Shown here: positions 3,014 through 46,777 of the stretch, in pieces
Layout of the letters: the number at the start of each line of letters is the position of its first letter
Position numbering within the stretch: the first letter of the stretch is position 1
Source: an uncultured Candidatus Saccharibacteria bacterium
Lineage (GTDB): Bacteria > Patescibacteriota > Minisyncoccia > Minisyncoccales > CAYJUL01
DNA: 64,000 nt
Assembly: GCA_964401295.1 (NCBI GenBank)
Contig: CAYNXX010000001.1
Location: 137,076 to 201,075 of the forward strand
Reading direction: 5' to 3'
Position numbers and translations under genes: made by a program
The notes under the pieces: generated by a model
What the model saw: only the letters and a program-made list of their open reading frames with translations
What the model was told of the DNA's origin: nothing
The model's database searches: none

Positions 3014-3100
3014 GCCCGGGTGGCGAAACTGGCAGACGCACAGGACTCAAAATCCTGCGAGAGCAATCTCATGAGGGTTCAAGTCCCTCCCCGGGCACCA
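3014..3100 (+). tRNA. tRNA-Leu (anticodon CAA), class II with long variable arm, CCA encoded
   Basis: Acceptor GCCCGGG pairs with CCCGGGC. U8 is present. The D-arm GGCGAAACUGGCAGACGC is Leu-like. The anticodon stem is CAGGA/UCCUG with loop CUCAAAA. A long variable arm and T-arm GAGGGUUCAAGUCCCUC are present. The sequence ends A-CCA. Confidence 0.85.
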
Positions 3101-3132
3101 AAACTAACTTTGTCGGAAATGACTGCTCCGCG
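3095..3132 (+). repeat. Copy A of the 37-nt tRNA-3'-end-associated site (gcaccaaaactaactttgtcggaaAtgactgctccgc); one mismatch versus copies B and C
   Basis: Direct comparison with 45085-45121 (same orientation) and 46672-46708 (reverse complement). The single difference (A versus T) falls in the central AATT. Confidence 0.9.
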
Positions 3133-3275
3133 CGCCCCGATAAAAACTGCTAAAGATCTGTAAAAACATCGGCTCGAACCATATTTTGTAAAAGCAGGGG
3201 GGAATTTTTTTTAAAACTGAATACTTGATTCTAAAATCAACAACCTCGCTGATTTTTTGTTTCTGATACAAGCTA

Positions 3276-3303
3276 TTGACTTTTGTTTTGTGTATTATAT
3301 AAT
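3276..3303 (+). promoter_or_regulatory. Sigma70-like promoter (TTGACT, 16-nt spacer, TATAAT) for small ORF P1; a strong SD AAAGGAGG lies at 3335-3342
   Basis: Consensus hexamers were read directly from the sequence. The SD sits 6 nt before the ATG at 3349. Confidence 0.6.
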
Positions 3304-3348
3304 ATAACTGGCGCCTAAGAAAACGGGTGGCCAGAAAGGAGGATTGCT

Positions 3349-3663
3349 ATGGACCATAGCAACCTTGCAGGTCAGAAGTATTCCCACAGTCAATGTGTTC
3401 ACGGCAGGTGCCTTGACCACGGACCGGAGTGGGAAAACGTCGGTGAAGTGCGGCGCGAGCCCAATCCAGGAATCTTCGGTAAGAAGACCTCCGGGATGAA
3501 CCGTTGCTGCGGCAAGCCGATGACGCAGTACAAAGAAGTGCAGACGCAGCGGTGTCGTAAATGCGGACGTACCAAAGATCACATAACGAACTACCGCCTC
3601 GTATTCTGCCTCTGCTGCGGCTACCACTTCACCAAGTCCGGCAGCTCATTATTTACCCCCTAA
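3349..3663 (+). CDS. Small Cys-rich hypothetical protein P1 (104 aa, 10 Cys, CxxxxC / CC / CxxC / CxCC pattern); visibly GC-rich compared with the host
   Basis: The ORF has a consensus promoter, a strong RBS and an intrinsic terminator. Its G+C is visibly above the ~35-40% of flanking genes. It lies between the tRNA-Leu-associated repeat copy A and the hairpin motif m1. Confidence 0.6.
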   Translation: MDHSNLAGQKYSHSQCVHGRCLDHGPEWENVGEVRREPNPGIFGKKTSGMNRCCGKPMTQYKEVQTQRCRKCGRTKDHITNYRLVFCLCCGYHFTKSGSSLFTP

Positions 3664-3680: not shown

Positions 3681-3722
3681 GGGGGTTGCGGGAGAAATCT
3701 CGCACCCCCTTTTTCTTTTTTT
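3681..3722 (+). terminator. Rho-independent terminator of P1 (GGGGGUUGCGGGA-GAAA-UCUCGCACCCCC, GNRA loop, followed by a U-run)
   Basis: The hairpin and T-run (TTTTTCTTTTTTT) were read directly from the sequence. Confidence 0.75.
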
Positions 3723-3782
3723 CGTTTTTGAAATTATCCGGTTCGCGGCGAAGCCACTCATTTTTTGTGGGAGTTTCCTCGC

Positions 3783-3816
3783 CGCTGTAGGCGGCGAAAT
3801 GCATTTGAACTATTTT
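3783..3816 (+). repeat. Motif m1: short GC hairpin (cgccgcTGTAGgcggcg) plus the tail aaatgcatttgaactattttaag. It is related to inverted motif m2 at 42868-42901.
   Basis: About 29 of 33 nt are identical to the reverse complement of 42868-42901, and the upstream hairpin is analogous. Both sit at the tRNA-distal end of a GC-rich islet. Confidence 0.6.
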
Positions 3817-3876
3817 AAGAATTGGGTACTACAAAGACGGGCAGAAAGCCCGTCTTTGTGACCGCTCAAATACTAG

Positions 3877-4404
3877 TTATTTAAACCGCCTGACAAGGCT
3901 TGGCGCAAAAGAAACAACCAACCATCCGCTCAAAATACCTATAACCGCTCCCCCTACAACATCTGTCGGCCAGTGGACGCCCACGAAAACGCGGGCTAAA
4001 GCTATTGCACTGCTGGCAAGCAAAAATGCAACGCCGGCTTTTTTGTTATAAAGATAGAAAACAGTTGAGAGCGCGAAATAAAAAGTGGCGTGGCCAGACG
4101 GAAAAGAATCATAAAGTGGTTCCCTACCGACGAGCGGAATGATATTTCCGTTAACAAACGGTCTTGGACGCGCGATAAAAAAACGTATAATCTCGGCAAC
4201 AATAAATCTTGAAAAAAATGCGGCAATTAATCCCTGCCATACCATCGGCCAGTATTTTTGGGCACGAAGCAAAAGAAAAATCGGTATGGTTAAAAGTAGT
4301 GCGTATCCCGCATATGTGGCGAAAAAAATAGCCACCGTGTCTAACCAGATATATTTCAATGTAAATCCGTTGATTAGCCTAAAAAGATATTGATCTATGG
4401 TCAT
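3877..4404 (-). CDS. PAP2-family phosphatase (undecaprenyl-diphosphatase / PgpB-like) membrane protein
   Basis: PAP2 signature motifs are present: RPRP, SFPSGHA and GVHWPTDV. Confidence 0.8.
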   Translation of the reverse strand: MTIDQYLFRLINGFTLKYIWLDTVAIFFATYAGYALLLTIPIFLLLRAQKYWPMVWQGLIAAFFSRFIVAEIIRFFIARPRPFVNGNIIPLVGREPLYDSFPSGHATFYFALSTVFYLYNKKAGVAFLLASSAIALARVFVGVHWPTDVVGGAVIGILSGWLVVSFAPSLVRRFK

Positions 4405-30605: not shown

Positions 30606-31181
30606 TTACACAATCCCATACCCTTGGGAGCAAAGCTCCTTGATAACCCAGGTTTCGACTTCATCCCAATTAACGGCGCGCCAAGTGGGGCGCTGGAAGA
30701 GGGAGACCTTGCCCGCAAGCTCCTCCACAAGCTCGCTCGTTAATTCGGCGTGGACGTACTTCTCCATGCGAGGGTCCTCGTACCATAGCTCCCGGAAAAG
30801 GTTTATGAACCTTTGGTCGCACGACGAGCAGGTAACTGCGAGGAGCTTCTTCTTGCCGCTCGGCTCTACCTTCCACGACGCCCAGAAACAGTCGGACACG
30901 TTGCAGCCGCAGAGAGTGCACTTCTTGATCTTGGAGCGGTATAGATCTACCATACCTTCCAAGACAAGCTTCGTGTGACTCGTGCAGTACCAGTCTTCCT
31001 CCACTCTCCAGTCCGCCCCATCAGGACATGGCTTGTTCGGTGGAAAGGTGCGGAAACTGTCGCCGAAGAAACAGTCGAGGTATAGCTTCCTCTGTTCGGC
31101 TTCGGTCCTGCGCCGGATTATAAGTCTAAACTGCTGCCTGCATCGCTCGACCAACGGTTGAATTTCTTGCGCTGTAGTCAT
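30606..31181 (-). CDS. Cys-rich hypothetical protein P3 (191 aa), GC-rich, very strong RBS (AAAGGAGGUGA)
   Basis: Eleven Cys in CxxC/CSSC-type pairs. G+C is clearly above the host. The consensus SD was read from the sequence. It lies between argS and smpB. Confidence 0.6.
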   Translation of the reverse strand: MTTAQEIQPLVERCRQQFRLIIRRRTEAEQRKLYLDCFFGDSFRTFPPNKPCPDGADWRVEEDWYCTSHTKLVLEGMVDLYRSKIKKCTLCGCNVSDCFWASWKVEPSGKKKLLAVTCSSCDQRFINLFRELWYEDPRMEKYVHAELTSELVEELAGKVSLFQRPTWRAVNWDEVETWVIKELCSQGYGIV

Positions 31182-31387: not shown

Positions 31388-31837
31388 ATGCCCGTCCTGG
31401 CCGAAAATAAAAAAGCCCGCTTCAACTACGAAGTACTGGAATCGTTTGAAGCCGGTATCGTTTTGAAGGGCCAAGAAGTAAAATCAATAAAATCGGGGGG
31501 TATCGCCCTTGCCGGCTCTTATGTTGTTGCCCGCGGCGGCGAAATATGGTTCGTGGGCGCTAATATTCCGCCCTACCAGCCCAAAAATACAACGGCAAAC
31601 TACGATCCCCAGCGGCCGAGAAAATTACTTTTAAAGAAAGAGGAAATAAAGTATTTATTTGGCAGATCCCAGCAGCGAGGCTTGACTTTGGTACCATTAA
31701 GGTTATATACTAAGCAGGGCAGAATAAAATTGGAATTCGGGATCGCCAGACACAAAAAGAAATTCGGAAAAAAACAAACCATTCAAAAAAGGCAGACGCA
31801 AAGAGAAATAGAAAGAGAGCTAAAAACGCGGGGATGA
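31388..31837 (+). CDS. smpB: SsrA-binding protein SmpB
   Basis: The N-terminus reads KKARFNYEVLESFEAGIVLKGQEVKS. Total length is 149 aa. Confidence 0.95.
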   Translation: MPVLAENKKARFNYEVLESFEAGIVLKGQEVKSIKSGGIALAGSYVVARGGEIWFVGANIPPYQPKNTTANYDPQRPRKLLLKKEEIKYLFGRSQQRGLTLVPLRLYTKQGRIKLEFGIARHKKKFGKKQTIQKRQTQREIERELKTRG

Positions 31838-32173
31838 CACAGTTTCGATAGAAGAACTTTTTAAAACATGCGGGCCGAGGCCGATCAAAGCCTCGTTAAA
31901 ATTTGATCAACTAAATAAGTGCCAACTTATTTAACCAACCAGCTTACGCTTTAGCATAAGCCATTTGAAATAATAGATTCTCGATAATTATTTCGGGTGC
32001 AAACCAATCGAGATCGGCGGTTTCTTTGATCTGGAGCGCTGCCGAAAACAACAGATCAAGATGGCGGGCGTTTCGTCCGCTTTCAAGTCCGCCATTTTCC
32101 AAAGTGGACTACACTCGTAGAACTGTTTTAAAAAACATTCTAGACGCGGGGGCAGAACCCGCCATCTCCACCA
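31830..32173 (+). ncRNA. ssrA: tmRNA (ssrA), ~344 nt; tag ORF GCC...TAA encodes (A)NLFNQPAYALA
   Basis: The 5' end GGGGAUGACACAGUUUCGAUAG resembles the E. coli GGGGCUGAUUCUGGAUUCGACGG. It forms a perfect 7-bp acceptor stem with the 3' end ...CAUCUCC-A-CCA, including a G3:U70 pair. A tRNA-like 3' arm GACGCGGGGGCAGAACCCGCC is present. The tag reading frame runs 31921-31959 and ends ...YALA-TAA. The RNA starts within the smpB stop codon. Confidence 0.8.
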
Positions 32174-42544: not shown

Positions 42545-42867
42545 CTCTGCCTCCTTTCATTATTTGCTAACTGCCACGAAATGGCATGGCAGATCGAAAT
42601 CCTCCGCGGGGCTATGAAAACATGCTTGCCCAGGGCGTTTGGGTCGGAAAATTCTTTGACAAGATATTTGCGTCATGCCAGTTATAATTCCTCAGACCGC
42701 CGAAGCTGACGGTGATTCGACCATAGTCAACAGCAACAAAAAACATTTTGTACCTCTTTTTTAAGCTACAACCTGTTAAATATACCAGATTTTATCTTGA
42801 AAGTCAAGAATAAAGACCTGTGCGACGCGCTGGGCTTAAAATATGGCGCAGAATGCTTGAAATAATT

Positions 42868-42901
42868 CGAATGCATTTCGCCGCCGCAAACGGCGGCGAA
42901 A
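42868..42901 (-). repeat. Motif m2: inverted copy of m1 (hairpin cgccgcCGTTTGCggcggcg plus tail aaatgcattcgaattatttcaag)
   Basis: The reverse complement aligns to 3783-3816. It is adjacent to the P4 terminator hairpin at ~42907-42935 (GCGGAAG...CUUCCGC + UUUUU on the minus strand). Confidence 0.6.
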
Positions 42902-42946
42902 CAGAAAAAGCGGAAGTCGAACGGCTTCCGCTAGTCTATAGCAGGG

Positions 42947-43639
42947 TTATTTCTTCTTAACGACCATCTGAAAATCCAGCAAGTCTTTCCCAAGCGTAGC
43001 ATCATTGCGCTTGAGCATGATTTCTTGATAGCCTATCAACTTTCCTGTTTCGTCAACTACCTCCACTAGTCGTGTGTAGTATGGAGCATTATAGCAATCA
43101 CCGCTTTTAAGAATCTGTTCTGCCTCGTAAGCAGTATTGACTCGCCGTTTGTACTCGTCCTTGATATCCTCAAAGACGCCACTAACGCCGATTTCAAGAT
43201 ATTCGGTTTTGTACGAGGCTGAGGTCAATGCCTCAACGGTAAAGTCATACAACCAATAGCGCAATTCTTGCGCCCAATCGCCATTCGCAACTTTCAATTG
43301 AGGAACGCGCTGAATTAATCGGGTAAAGGCATAATTGAACTCCCCGACATACGCTCCCTCATAGTTATACTTAGCACCGACTTCGTAAATTGCTTTTGCA
43401 AGATTCGCTTCACTTGAATCGGCCTCAGATCCCCTAACGACAAAACGAAGACATTGCGCAACTTTGAGGAAAACAGATTTGTAAAATGGAATGGGTGATG
43501 AGCTGCTGTCTATAATGATGGAGTGAAGATGTTGCGCAACTTTGAGGAAAACAGATTTGTAAACCTTAAGGAGCGATAGATTGCTATTTACCCTCGCTAC
43601 AATATCGGCCACAAGCCGCTCTACTGCGGCATCAAGCAC
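42947..43639 (-). CDS. Hypothetical protein P4 (230 aa) with an internal in-frame 81-nt tandem duplication (KSVFLKVAQ..., twice); GC-rich islet cargo
   Basis: The 32-nt strings at 43455-43487 and 43536-43568 are nearly identical. No recognisable domain was found. The start is GTG, with an AGGAGG ~59 nt upstream. Confidence 0.45.
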   Translation of the reverse strand: MLDAAVERLVADIVARVNSNLSLLKVYKSVFLKVAQHLHSIIIDSSSSPIPFYKSVFLKVAQCLRFVVRGSEADSSEANLAKAIYEVGAKYNYEGAYVGEFNYAFTRLIQRVPQLKVANGDWAQELRYWLYDFTVEALTSASYKTEYLEIGVSGVFEDIKDEYKRRVNTAYEAEQILKSGDCYNAPYYTRLVEVVDETGKLIGYQEIMLKRNDATLGKDLLDFQMVVKKK

Positions 43640-45084: not shown

Positions 45085-45156
45085 GCACCAAAACTAACTT
45101 TGTCGGAATTGACTGCTCCGCTTTTGTTTTTGCCGTAAAATCCCAGAGTTCGCCCC
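45085..45156 (+). repeat. Left terminal inverted repeat (copy B, 72 nt) of the recombinase module
   Basis: Nucleotides 1-36 are identical to the reverse complement of 46673-46708. Nucleotides 37-72 match the reverse complement of 46591-46626 with one mismatch. Confidence 0.9.
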
Positions 45157-45165
45157 AATAACCAT

Positions 45166-46769
45166 ATGAAAGAGCTCAAACCAAAAACTCAATGCATTCT
45201 CTATGCTCGGAAATCAACCGAGGAGGATGATAAGCAAGTGATGAGCATAGAAGCTCAACTGTTTGAATTGCGCGAATTTGCCGAGCGAGAACGCATTGAG
45301 ATAATCCGTGAGTTCACGGAAGCGGAAAGCGCAAAGAAACCCGGACGAGAGGAATTTGCCAAAATGCTTTCCTTAATTGAAATAAGCAAAAAGCCGCTCG
45401 GCATTTTGGCATGGCACCCCGATCGTCTCGCCCGCAATAGCGTGGACGGCGGCAGAATCATTTATCTCGTGGACACCGGAGCTATTGCTTCTTTGCGCTT
45501 TCCGCAATTTTGGTTTGAGCCAACTCCGCAAGGGAAATTCATGTTGCAAGTGGCGTTCGGGCAATCAAAGTATTTCTCGGATAACTTGGTTGAAAATGTG
45601 AAGCGCGGTATCCGCCAAAAACTCAGCCGCGGCGAATGGCTGACGCTCGCTCCTTTGGGATATGTGAACAACTACAAAATACGGAACATTGACCCGCACC
45701 CTACTTACGCAAAAGTCATCAAGCGAGCGTTTGAAGAGTACGCCACGGGAAAATATACGCTCGTCGGTTTAGCGGAGTTTTTAGCGGGGCATGGCGTTGT
45801 TCAGAAAAAAGGAACGCCACTTGCAAAAGTTTCCGTCGTGAAAATGCTTACTAACCGAGCATATCTAGGATTTGTAAAATTTCATGGCGAATACCACGAC
45901 GGAAACTTTGAGCCGATTCTTTCCCCGACACTGTTTGAAGCAGTACAGAAAGTATTGAAAAGCAAGCAAAGACCGCGCAAACAGAAAGAGCGATACGATT
46001 TCCCTTTTACGCAGTTTGCGCGGTGCGGCGAGTGCGGAAATATGATTACGGCGCAGTATGCCACCAATCGCTGGGGCACGCGCTATACTTACTACCGTTG
46101 CACCAAGAAAAGCGGGCATTGTAGCCAGCCGTATCTTTCCGCCGATACGCTCGCCGCCCAAGCGCAAACCCTGTTTCAATCAGTGTCGCTTCCTCTCGCG
46201 GAAATTGAGGTTATGGAAAAGCAGATTGACACACGGGAGAAAGAAGAAATTTCCGCGAGAGGAGATGTTGCCCAAAATCTTAAAGCAAAACTCAAGAGGC
46301 GCAGGAGAAGCTAGGCCGGCTTGTCTCGCTCTATTTGGACGACGACATCGAACGAGAACTCTATCTCACAAAGAAAGACGCGCTCCTTCGCCAAAAAGCC
46401 AAGCTGGAAGAAAGTTTGGGAGATTTTGGGCAACAGGGAAAGAATCAGCTCGAACCCTTGCGGAGTTTCGTTTTGTCCTTGAGAGAAGCGGAAAAAGTGG
46501 CGCAAACAAAAAATCACGCCGACTGGCGCAACTTTTTCCGTTCGCTCGGCTCTAACCCCGAGATCAAGGATAAAACGCTTTCAATCAACTGGGGCGAACT
46601 CTGGGATTTTACGGCGAAAACAAAAGCGGATTTTGCCCTGCGGAGCGAGCCGTCCGCCGCGCGGACGGCGAGCGGAGCAGTCAATTCCGACAAAGTTAGT
46701 TTTGGTGCGCCTACGAGGATTCGAACCCCGATCTCGAGCTCCGGAAGCTCGTGTTCTATCCATTAAACT
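45166..46769 (+). pseudogene. Large serine recombinase (resolvase/invertase N-domain, recombinase domain, zinc ribbon, coiled-coil) with a -1 frameshift near 46294-46296
   Basis: The N-terminus reads CILYARKSTEEDDKQ...SIEAQ, containing the catalytic Ser. The C4 zinc ribbon reads CGECGNMITAQY...YYRCTKK. Frame 1 ends ...KAKLKRRRRS* at 46314. The coiled-coil continues in frame 0 (..KEAQEKLGRLVSLYLDDDIERELYL...). Restoring one A in 'ctcaagag' joins the two. Combined length is ~534 aa. Confidence 0.75.
46591..46708 (-). repeat. Right terminal inverted repeat (copy C) with a 46-nt GC-rich palindromic insertion (GCCGUCCG-CCGCG-CGGACGGC)
   Basis: See copy B. The outer end begins at the GCACCA 3' end of tRNA-Arg. 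Confidence 0.9.
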
Positions 46770-46777
46770 ATGGGCGC
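46703..46777 (-). tRNA. tRNA-Arg (anticodon CCG), CCA encoded
   Basis: The reverse complement is GCGCCCAUAGUUUAAUGGAUAGAACACGAGCUUCCGGAGCUCGAGAUCGGGGUUCGAAUCCUCGUAGGCGCACCA. The fold is a cloverleaf with anticodon loop UUCCGGA and a T-loop UUCGAAU. There is one C:A mismatch in the acceptor stem. Confidence 0.8.

Follow-up and report, generated by a model that had tools for sequence, protein, structure and literature searches.

Bacteria of the Candidate Phyla Radiation (CPR; Patescibacteria) have tiny genomes in which few mobile elements have been described and many genes have no assigned function. The described systems closest to the locus analysed here are the cargo genes ('morons') of elements found at the 3' ends of tRNA genes: single genes with their own promoter and terminator, a deviating base composition and variable neighbours, situated beside a tRNA gene and framed by flanking repeats. 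The same properties are found at P1, an open reading frame (ORF) of 104 amino acids (aa) in a 64,000-nt stretch of contig CAYNXX010000001.1 (positions 137,076 to 201,075; assembly GCA_964401295.1) from an uncultured Candidatus Saccharibacteria bacterium, hereafter the window, meaning the whole stretch of DNA that was analysed. The explanation favoured here, to which a probability of about 0.55 is assigned, is that P1 is a cargo gene moving horizontally among Patescibacteria as a self-sufficient cassette that is linked to a large serine recombinase (LSR) and gated at translation.

P1 is a genuine conserved gene for a small Cys-rich protein. The parts of its cassette and of the adjoining sequence are given below, with coordinates counted from the first nucleotide of the window.

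3014..3100, plus strand: tRNA-Leu(CAA) gene (ARAGORN; Rfam RF00005), directly upstream of the cassette
3095..3131, plus strand: last 6 nt of the tRNA gene and a 31-nt site (GCACCA AAACTAACTTTGTCGGAAATGACTGCTCCGC), recurring at 45085-45121 (plus) and 46671-46708 (minus)
3113..3215, plus strand: left flank ('family B leader'), homologous to LSR 5' coding sequence, with an exact motif at 3162-3188
3233..3259, plus strand: weak copy of an upstream hairpin and T-run that reads AAGAAACGGCAGAGATGCCGATTTTTTG in other loci (DNA alignments, motif scan)
3276..3303, plus strand: sigma-70-type promoter TTGACT-16-TATAAT, with 11 of 12 consensus matches and with -35 and -10 kept across loci
3295..3627, minus strand: antisense ORF of 110 aa, a by-product and not a gene
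3308..3334, plus strand: leader hairpin 1, CUGGCGCC-UAAGAAAAC-GGGUGGCCAG (RNAalifold; 94.6% of cells paired in 19 sequences)
3335..3342, plus strand: Shine-Dalgarno (SD) sequence AAAGGAGG, whose 3' half pairs with CCUU at 3363-3366
3339..3366, plus strand: leader hairpin 2, GAGGA-UUGCUAUG-GAC-CAUAGCAA-CCUU, enclosing the AUG
3349..3663, plus strand: P1 ORF with ATG start, coding for 104 aa with an N-terminal C-x-H-x2-C-x2-H motif and a C-terminal CxxCGR...CxCC zinc-ribbon motif
3681..3726, plus strand: intrinsic terminator with a 14-bp nested stem, GAAA loop and T-run, and compensatory changes at several stem pairs
3730..3832, plus strand: right flank, a degenerate 'X element' (GAAATTATC, GC hairpins, GAAATGCATTTGAACTATTTTAAGAAT, GGGTACTA) that aligns with the X elements of other genomes

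The strongest evidence that these signals are not due to chance is their conservation across independent loci: promoter, leader, ORF and terminator are kept in the great majority of the independent aligned loci, several distant members included, and one distant member (L151) is missing the promoter and the leader hairpin. Sites reaching at least 11 of 12 promoter matches number 7 on both strands of the window, against 2.0 in block shuffles, and 6 nt separate the last base of the SD from the ATG. The terminator stem is made of GGGGG/CCCCC and GCGGGA-GAAA-UCUCGC at 3681..3709, followed by the T-run, and its loop is a GNRA tetraloop that reads GUAA in one other locus (L015). A preliminary description of this DNA had reported a small Cys-rich ORF equipped with precisely such a promoter, SD and GNRA-loop terminator; all three were found, and the ORF is real, with a Cys/His pattern of the zinc-ribbon type that is kept in its relatives. 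The ten cysteines of that description become nine on counting (C16, C21, C53, C54, C69, C72, C87, C89 and C90), and its G+C of about 55% for the ORF is borne out (54.6%), while the 37% or so that it gave for the genome does not agree with the 42.1% of the window. The anomaly in composition that it pointed to is clear, with the ORF (G+C 0.546) in the top 0.6% of the window's 315-nt segments and a G+C at third codon positions (GC3) of 0.68 that lies four standard deviations above the mean of the window's ORFs (0.426, standard deviation 0.061).

The cassette is conserved from promoter to terminator, and the gene neighbourhoods in which it occurs are unrelated between loci. In the window, a ParA gene and the tRNA gene lie on one side and a PAP2 gene on the other; elsewhere the neighbours are L19 with a tRNA on one side and a copper ATPase on the other, sugar-metabolism genes, DsbD, a sigma factor or RF-1. 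P1 cassettes are enriched beside tRNA genes: with adjacency defined as a same-strand tRNA ending no more than 350 nt upstream of the P1 ATG, such a tRNA ends 80-280 nt upstream in 12 of the 24 loci whose upstream sequence is long enough, with 8 different anticodons in total (among them Leu-CAA, Leu-GAG, Lys-UUU, Phe, Arg-GCG, Arg-UCG and Gly-CCC), where a rough, uncomputed estimate of chance adjacency is a few per cent of loci. The hairpin and T-run upstream of the cassette probably insulate it from tRNA read-through. The G+C of the ORF is 0.49-0.60 in hosts of 0.35-0.54, and the window locus differs from most other loci, whose candidate-phylum labels are different, by a synonymous divergence (dS) of only 0.4-0.7. 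Conservation of the non-coding flanks equals that of the ORF in a subset of loci and reaches from about -215 to +420, counted from the ATG. Several loci also have repeats at the cassette, namely a 49-nt direct repeat (94% identical) that flanks P1 on both sides in L002, a 16-nt repeat in L001 and, in L015, a repetition of 15 of the 16 nt of the tRNA-Arg(UCG) 3' end (3906-3921) at 4360-4375, right after the P1 terminator. The L015 repeats bracket a 0.45-kb unit of promoter, ORF and terminator, which is the classic signature of insertion at a tRNA 3' end. The variable neighbourhoods, tRNA adjacency, conserved flanks and unsaturated synonymous sites between distant hosts agree with the earlier proposal of a foreign or element-borne unit. 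A phage origin was rejected, as no P1 relative occurs among the 2.9 million viral contigs of IMG/VR and the neighbours of P1 are housekeeping genes.

The link to a recombinase comes from the sequences that frame the cassette. The 31-nt site beside the tRNA-Leu gene, to which the preliminary description had drawn attention, was a productive hint: the same site brackets an LSR gene within the window. The 38-nt tRNA-Leu junction matches the other two copies at 36 of 37 nt. Those copies do not differ from one another (100% identity) and form the inner portions of 73-nt inverted repeats around the gene at 45166-46314. The features concerned are as follows.

45085-45157 and 46590-46708: 73-nt inverted repeats, each beginning with GCACCA (the last 6 nt of a tRNA), the second with a 46-nt insert
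45166-46314: LSR gene with Resolvase, Recombinase and Zn_ribbon_recom domains (Pfam)
46703-46777, minus strand: tRNA-Arg(CCG) gene, abutting the right inverted repeat
42852-42902, minus strand: X-element tail in a second copy, which shares 80% identity with 3773-3823

Two observations may be added on this part of the window. A 143-aa ORF at 46335-46766, in another frame, may be the C-terminal part of the LSR, which would imply a frameshift or a split gene. The second X-element tail lies directly downstream of a 230-aa DUF6899 ORF (42947-43639, minus strand) that holds two 66-nt repeats at 43447-43590, and this may be another cargo slot.

Sequence comparison shows that, in about half of the loci, the P1 cassette is flanked by homologues of LSR gene sequence and of X elements. 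The left flank in the window matches an LSR segment of the form core-hairpin-AAAAC.GC.AAAGAACC, followed by AAAAACATCGGCTCGAACCATATTTTG and a G-run/A-T tract. In the window and in L001, L002 and L005, this flank is LSR sequence up to about codon 52 (AKTAKEP) and continues into the leader AAAAACATCGGCTCGAACCATATTTT...AATTTTTAATCATAAA, and in L007, L011 and L014 it consists of a tRNA trailer and the region that precedes the LSR gene. In other genomes, the right flank opens with the 27-mer TGCCGCCAAAGAAAAACTTGAAATTGT. By an exact-pattern scan for this 27-mer, the flank core (TGCCGCCAAAGAAAAAYTKGAAATTGT) is present in at least 120 metagenome contigs, with examples in loci L027-L106 at L028:271, L036:2873 and L047:3906. 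The core extends to 27-36 nt, (AAAGAATT)TGCCGCCAAAGAAAAACTTGAAATTGT, and within the LSR frame it is followed by a covarying hairpin. Among the 80 core loci analysed, 34 carry an LSR homologue, with the core at LSR codons 38-47 (...ELKEF|AAKEKLEIV...), and two carry P1; the remaining loci are non-coding X elements composed of the core, GC hairpins and GAAATGCGTTCGGACTAATTCAAGAATACTGCAC(CA), most of them near tRNA genes. Incomplete LSR genes occur as well, some without the stretch 5' of the core and others reduced to a 5' fragment that stops shortly after it. The core could be a recombination site within the LSR's own gene.

Genes other than P1 are framed in the same manner. A membrane-anchored beta-propeller-like gene of 373 to 376 aa lies between two direct cores in L049 (reverse complement 128-1450) and, in L097:11290-12860, after an LSR gene cut at codon 52, directly after tRNA-Gly; it carries the same leader as the P1 cassettes. 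Diverse genes for membrane or secreted proteins are found divergently upstream of intact LSR genes with the same leader and core. The beta-propeller gene was considered as a common cargo partner and set aside, because it occurs in only 2 of the 80 loci analysed; the slots therefore hold diverse genes and not one partner.

The leader of P1 forms two hairpins for which covariation is directly observed. In hairpin 2, UUGCUAUG pairs with CAUAGCAA and GAGG with CCUU, giving a helix of about 12 bp. Inside this helix lie the 3' half of the SD and the AUG, and codons 2-5 (MDHSN) make up its 3' arm. Over both hairpins, 93.3% of cells are paired in the 19 sequences and compensatory changes occur at 8 pairs, 7 of which belong to the 12 pairs of hairpin 2 (92.5% of cells paired). 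None of 500 shuffles matches the observed score, and sliding the pairing partner by 1-3 columns lowers the paired fraction to 25-50%. The AUG itself takes part in this pattern, having changed to GUG together with its pairing partner in L017 with hairpin 2 kept, and L015, L018 and L025 retain the helix with different sequences. Single-sequence minimum free energy folds contain hairpin 2 in all 19 cases and hairpin 1 in most.

Because a covarying hairpin hides the AUG and part of the SD, expression is better described as gated than as simply high. The earlier view that the signals look engineered for high expression was thus right about their strength and too simple about the outcome: transcription is probably strong, and the leader suggests that translation is gated. 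Transcription is predicted to start near 3310, before the helix; therefore the hairpin is not a device solely against read-through. Autoregulation by P1 via its leader is plausible. The closest known cases of silencing by a sequestered SD and AUG are RNA thermometers, IS10 fold-back inhibition and type I toxin mRNAs, which P1 resembles in the stable, covarying helix over its start site, downstream of a strong promoter; unlike these silencing systems, the P1 leader has no match to an Rfam family. As a separate observation made by eye, the 5' arm and loop of hairpin 1 (GGCGCCTAAGAAAAC at 3311-3324 in the window, GGCACCTAAGAAAAC in most loci) resemble the core of the recombinase, GCCGCCAAAGAAAAAC, as well as the junction at the tRNA end, GGGCACCAAAACTAAC; this could be due to chance or mark the relic of a site.

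The P1 family is known from CPR only. An exhaustive profile search returned 188 clusters at 50% identity, 123 of them below 1e-10 and nearly all of 85-125 aa; the protein database had initially given 44 ORFs of about 100 aa at 55-78% identity, and later 94 clusters among 5.8 billion proteins. A scan of 185,579 species genomes (one genome per species) found 19 P1 loci. Wherever source or record names exist, the members are labelled 'hypothetical protein' with the name of a candidate phylum (Taylorbacteria, Nealsonbacteria, Portnoybacteria, Moranbacteria, Wildermuthbacteria, Daviesbacteria, Yanofskybacteria, Minisyncoccota, Patescibacteria and 'Saccharibacteria'), the odd labels being one partial 'Nitrososphaera', one 'Gammaproteobacteria' metagenome-assembled genome and two records with 'bacterium' only. 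No significant match was obtained in Pfam, NCBIfam, PHROGs or PADLOC, in the last of which only a 10-bit match to a Cas12f zinc ribbon appeared, and full-text literature searches found neither the family nor CPR serine recombinase cassettes.

P1 is a zinc-ribbon protein of a new family. The AlphaFold2 model, built with 35 sequences, is all-beta with a mean predicted local distance difference test score (pLDDT) of 73.6, rising to 85-91 over residues 51-90, where two long hairpins (strands 56-69 and 75-86) carry the CxxC knuckles; C69, C72, C87 and C90 are invariant across the family. Two CxxC-type knuckles on beta-hairpins, as the model predicts, are what defines a zinc-ribbon fold. Given this class of fold, the invariant Cys and His residues and faint matches to RNA- and DNA-binding zinc ribbons, nucleic-acid binding would be the most likely role. 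Longer members of the family have no recognisable added domain, and domain fusion was therefore dropped as a clue to function. The idea of an HNH nuclease, taken from the string 'DH.PEWEN', was likewise abandoned, as the model is all-beta and a second CxxCH element is absent.

In the explanation favoured here, the cassette comprises its own promoter, structured leader, ORF and terminator, and its usual place is the stretch directly 3' of a tRNA gene, a type of site that LSR elements also occupy. The cassettes of the window's subfamily are framed by repeats homologous to the LSR 5' region, to the LSR upstream leader and to X elements, and they may be mobilised in trans by an LSR, now or formerly, or may have been born by recombination with an LSR element. 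In the mRNA made from the strong promoter, a hairpin would lock up the AUG together with part of the SD, and translation would require this hairpin to open, whether through temperature, a factor or, should P1 regulate itself, the absence of P1. The product would be an all-beta zinc-ribbon protein, most probably nucleic-acid binding. P1 may thus be one cargo among several in tRNA-proximal slots tied to the recombinase, and the explanation retains a role of the leader as a regulatory RNA.

Several results weigh against this explanation. Only L015 has the tRNA 3'-end duplication, which is absent in nine other tRNA-adjacent loci, and no empty site was found; the only two further contigs of the source genome both carry P1. 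None of 30 P1 loci has an LSR gene within 4-8 kb, and the cassette, if mobile, must therefore be non-autonomous. The LSR and X-element flank motifs tested are present in 11 of 24 P1 loci and absent in 13. The invariance of the core is inflated by the exact-pattern search, and distant LSR paralogues, that of the window included, diverge there. The low dS and high GC3 could reflect selection on codon usage or mRNA structure instead of recent transfer. For the protein, P1 probably binds zinc, a prediction made from its sequence alone, and a Foldseek search with the model found nothing significant in the PDB or BFVD libraries.

Of the alternatives, those that concern the nature of the gene can be weighed most sharply. 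Should P1 be a structured RNA without coding function (RNase P RNA, for instance, or some other large RNA), with an ORF present by chance in its GC-rich sequence, this might account for a G+C independent of the host, the adjoining tRNA genes, a transcript that folds better than shuffles (z = -4.65) and the several frames that are open. The substitution pattern is that of a coding sequence: in the codon alignment, mean pairwise differences at codon positions 1, 2 and 3 are 0.23, 0.21 and 0.36, the median ratio of nonsynonymous to synonymous divergence (dN/dS) is 0.26, G73 is encoded by GGA, GGC, GGG and GGT, R74 by six codons and the cysteines by both TGC and TGT. The frame is intact in 19 of 19 loci from the one-genome-per-species scan, and the amino-acid motif persists where the DNA has diverged, relatives at 30-46% identity retaining C16-x-H18-x2-C21-x2-H24-x-P26-x-W28...C54...C69-x2-C72-G-R...C87-x-C89-C90. 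Third-position excess, a dN/dS below 1 and a frame retained in distant relatives are the marks of a protein-coding gene, and the P1 ORF encodes a protein and is not a misread RNA. Rfam 15 further yields no match at gathering thresholds and none of relevance at E <= 10, and RNAalifold finds covariation only in the leader and terminator, with pairs in the ORF body invariant or changed on one side. Given the coding statistics and the lack of internal covariation, the RNA reading was dropped for the ORF body and can be given hardly any credence. An antisense gene was rejected as well, since the codon positions vary in the opposite way to that expected of such a gene, in a pattern that fits the sense strand only. 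The antisense frame, fully overlapping and open in 13 of 20 loci, is open because the sense ORF is without TTA, CTA and TCA codons, which are absent even though the host is AT-rich; NNC and NNG codons are strongly preferred, with ATC, TTC, TAC and AAG almost exclusive. An antisense product of 110 aa has been called at P1 on a Logan contig, and gene callers may annotate the wrong strand here. The other reading of this kind makes P1 a paralogue of a ribosomal protein that binds zinc (uS14 type Z, or eL37/eS29-like), and it is the one that the preliminary description had itself set against its proposal. The top PDB sequence profile matches are all uS14 or eS29 (best E = 0.0024 over 30 residues), and one Joint Genome Institute record names a family member 'ribosomal protein L37E'. 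The likeness is local, restricted in the PDB match to residues 67-96 (CxxCGR-x11-LCxxC); scores of 9.7 and 10 bits compare with NCBIfam cut-offs of 77 (NF005974) and 54 (NF004424), hhalign assigns a probability of 25.8% over 36 columns of the 61-aa uS14, the N-terminal 60 residues of P1 have no counterpart, and Foldseek shows no ribosomal protein above noise. Similar weak matches to the zinc ribbon of Cas12f/TnpB exist, and the signal is therefore that of a generic zinc ribbon. Zinc ribbons of uS14 type Z, eL37 and TnpB/Cas12f (TNB domain) have in common with P1 a CxxCG(R) knuckle followed, after 11-14 residues, by a second CxxC knuckle on a beta-hairpin; unlike them, P1 has an N-terminal CxHxxCxxH-PEWE module and a CC pair, and it fails all family thresholds. 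Descent from a ribosomal protein is largely refuted and highly improbable.

The alternatives that accept P1 as a novel protein differ in how it came to be where it is and what it does. It is unlikely that P1 is a vertically inherited, highly expressed housekeeping gene of CPR, with a GC3 raised by translational selection, flanks conserved as ordinary regulatory DNA and tRNA adjacency arising from the clustering of strongly transcribed loci. The near-consensus promoter and SD and the strong NNC/NNG codon preference are compatible with such a gene, as are some distant members (e.g. L151) that lie inside operons with ordinary GC3 and without cassette signals, but the family is rare (19 loci in 185,579 species genomes; 44 to 94 clusters among 5.8 billion proteins), no synteny at all exists between P1 loci, the flanks are homologous to an LSR gene and to repeats framing unrelated cargo, and sequestration of the AUG is unexpected for constitutive expression. 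An accessory factor of the LSR, acting on recombination directionality or site choice and carried on satellite cassettes that share the LSR sites, would be in keeping with a small protein of a nucleic-acid-binding type of fold, embedded in sequence common to LSR elements and found in one window with an LSR, both beside the same 38-nt site. Known directionality factors of serine integrases are small, unrelated proteins. This role is very unlikely in view of the loci examined: P1 is never adjacent to an LSR gene, it occurs in only 2 of the 80 core loci analysed against 34 for the LSR, the other cargo in the same slots consists of membrane or secreted proteins, and many P1 loci have no LSR-type flanks. 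A similarly low probability attaches to a toxin-like, anti-defence or addiction protein that stays translationally silent until triggered. A strong promoter with a sequestered SD and AUG does resemble the silencing of type I toxin mRNAs, and P1 is an isolated cargo gene of deviating composition; the toxin or anti-defence role listed among the early candidates nonetheless fares poorly, with nothing in PADLOC or PHROGs, no relative in the 2.9 million viral contigs, no hydrophobic segment in the protein, no partner gene conserved beside it and an antisense ORF that is a by-product of codon usage.

A more far-reaching version of the favoured explanation, which we regard as rather unlikely, is that P1 cassettes are the non-autonomous cargo of an undescribed CPR system of cassette exchange. 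The LSR would carry a recombination core inside its own 5' coding sequence, pseudo-tRNA-end X elements beside tRNA genes would serve as landing pads, and the LSR would swap single-gene cassettes (P1, beta-propeller and membrane proteins) in and out of the slots, with P1 as a conditionally expressed zinc-ribbon regulator spread by such cassettes. Should the recombinase-linked framework be an active exchange system, the importance of these observations would be greater. As they stand, they define a CPR-only protein family of at least 188 clusters with a clear zinc-ribbon signature, a well-supported cis-regulatory RNA that locks a start codon, and evidence that distant lineages of CPR exchange single genes in tRNA-adjacent cassettes that run from promoter to terminator. 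Further, the reading frame of an LSR subfamily contains the repeat seen at cassette borders, and if this repeat is a recombination site, it would point to a simple natural gene-swapping system. Serine recombinases are sought-after tools for genome engineering, and the sites are directly testable.

Two further features of the window lie apart from the cassette.

30606-31181, minus strand: Cys-rich ORF of 191 aa with a promoter near 31245-31217, GC3 of 0.70 and an AAAGGAGG SD
31830-32173, plus strand: transfer-messenger RNA (tmRNA) gene (Rfam, 108 bits), directly after smpB at 31388-31837, for which ARAGORN made no call

The 191-aa ORF lies between argS and smpB/tmRNA and has the only perfect TTGACA-17-TATAAT promoter in the window. 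It was considered as a relative of P1 and proved unrelated by comparison, and among 5.8 billion proteins it has no relatives except itself.

Compared with known mobile systems, P1 is nearest to cargo genes and departs from each described class in its own way. It shares with a phage moron the promoter, terminator and composition, and its location is not in a phage or prophage. Unlike the cargo of integrative elements and prophages, the P1 unit is just 0.45-0.75 kb long, with neither an integrase gene nor phage genes in its vicinity, and unlike the elements at tRNA 3' ends, it shows a clear tRNA-end duplication at only one locus. Integron cassettes are likewise small single-gene units with diverse cargo, hairpin-containing repeated sites and a common framework, but P1 has its own promoter, the associated enzyme is a serine recombinase (Resolvase/Recombinase/Zn_ribbon_recom), no multi-cassette arrays were seen, and neither an IntI tyrosine recombinase nor an attC consensus is found at P1 (the attC model was not run). 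The likeness to LSR elements extends to the flanks of P1, whose homologues are the upstream leader and the 5' coding region in a subfamily of LSR genes, and to the 38-nt site that follows tRNA-Leu by P1 and brackets the LSR by tRNA-Arg in the window, although the P1 cassettes are without a recombinase. To our knowledge, a core that lies both inside an LSR frame and in non-coding repeats matches no known system, the literature having been searched only for CPR serine recombinases. On balance, P1 is rated as a kind of integrative-element cargo gene.

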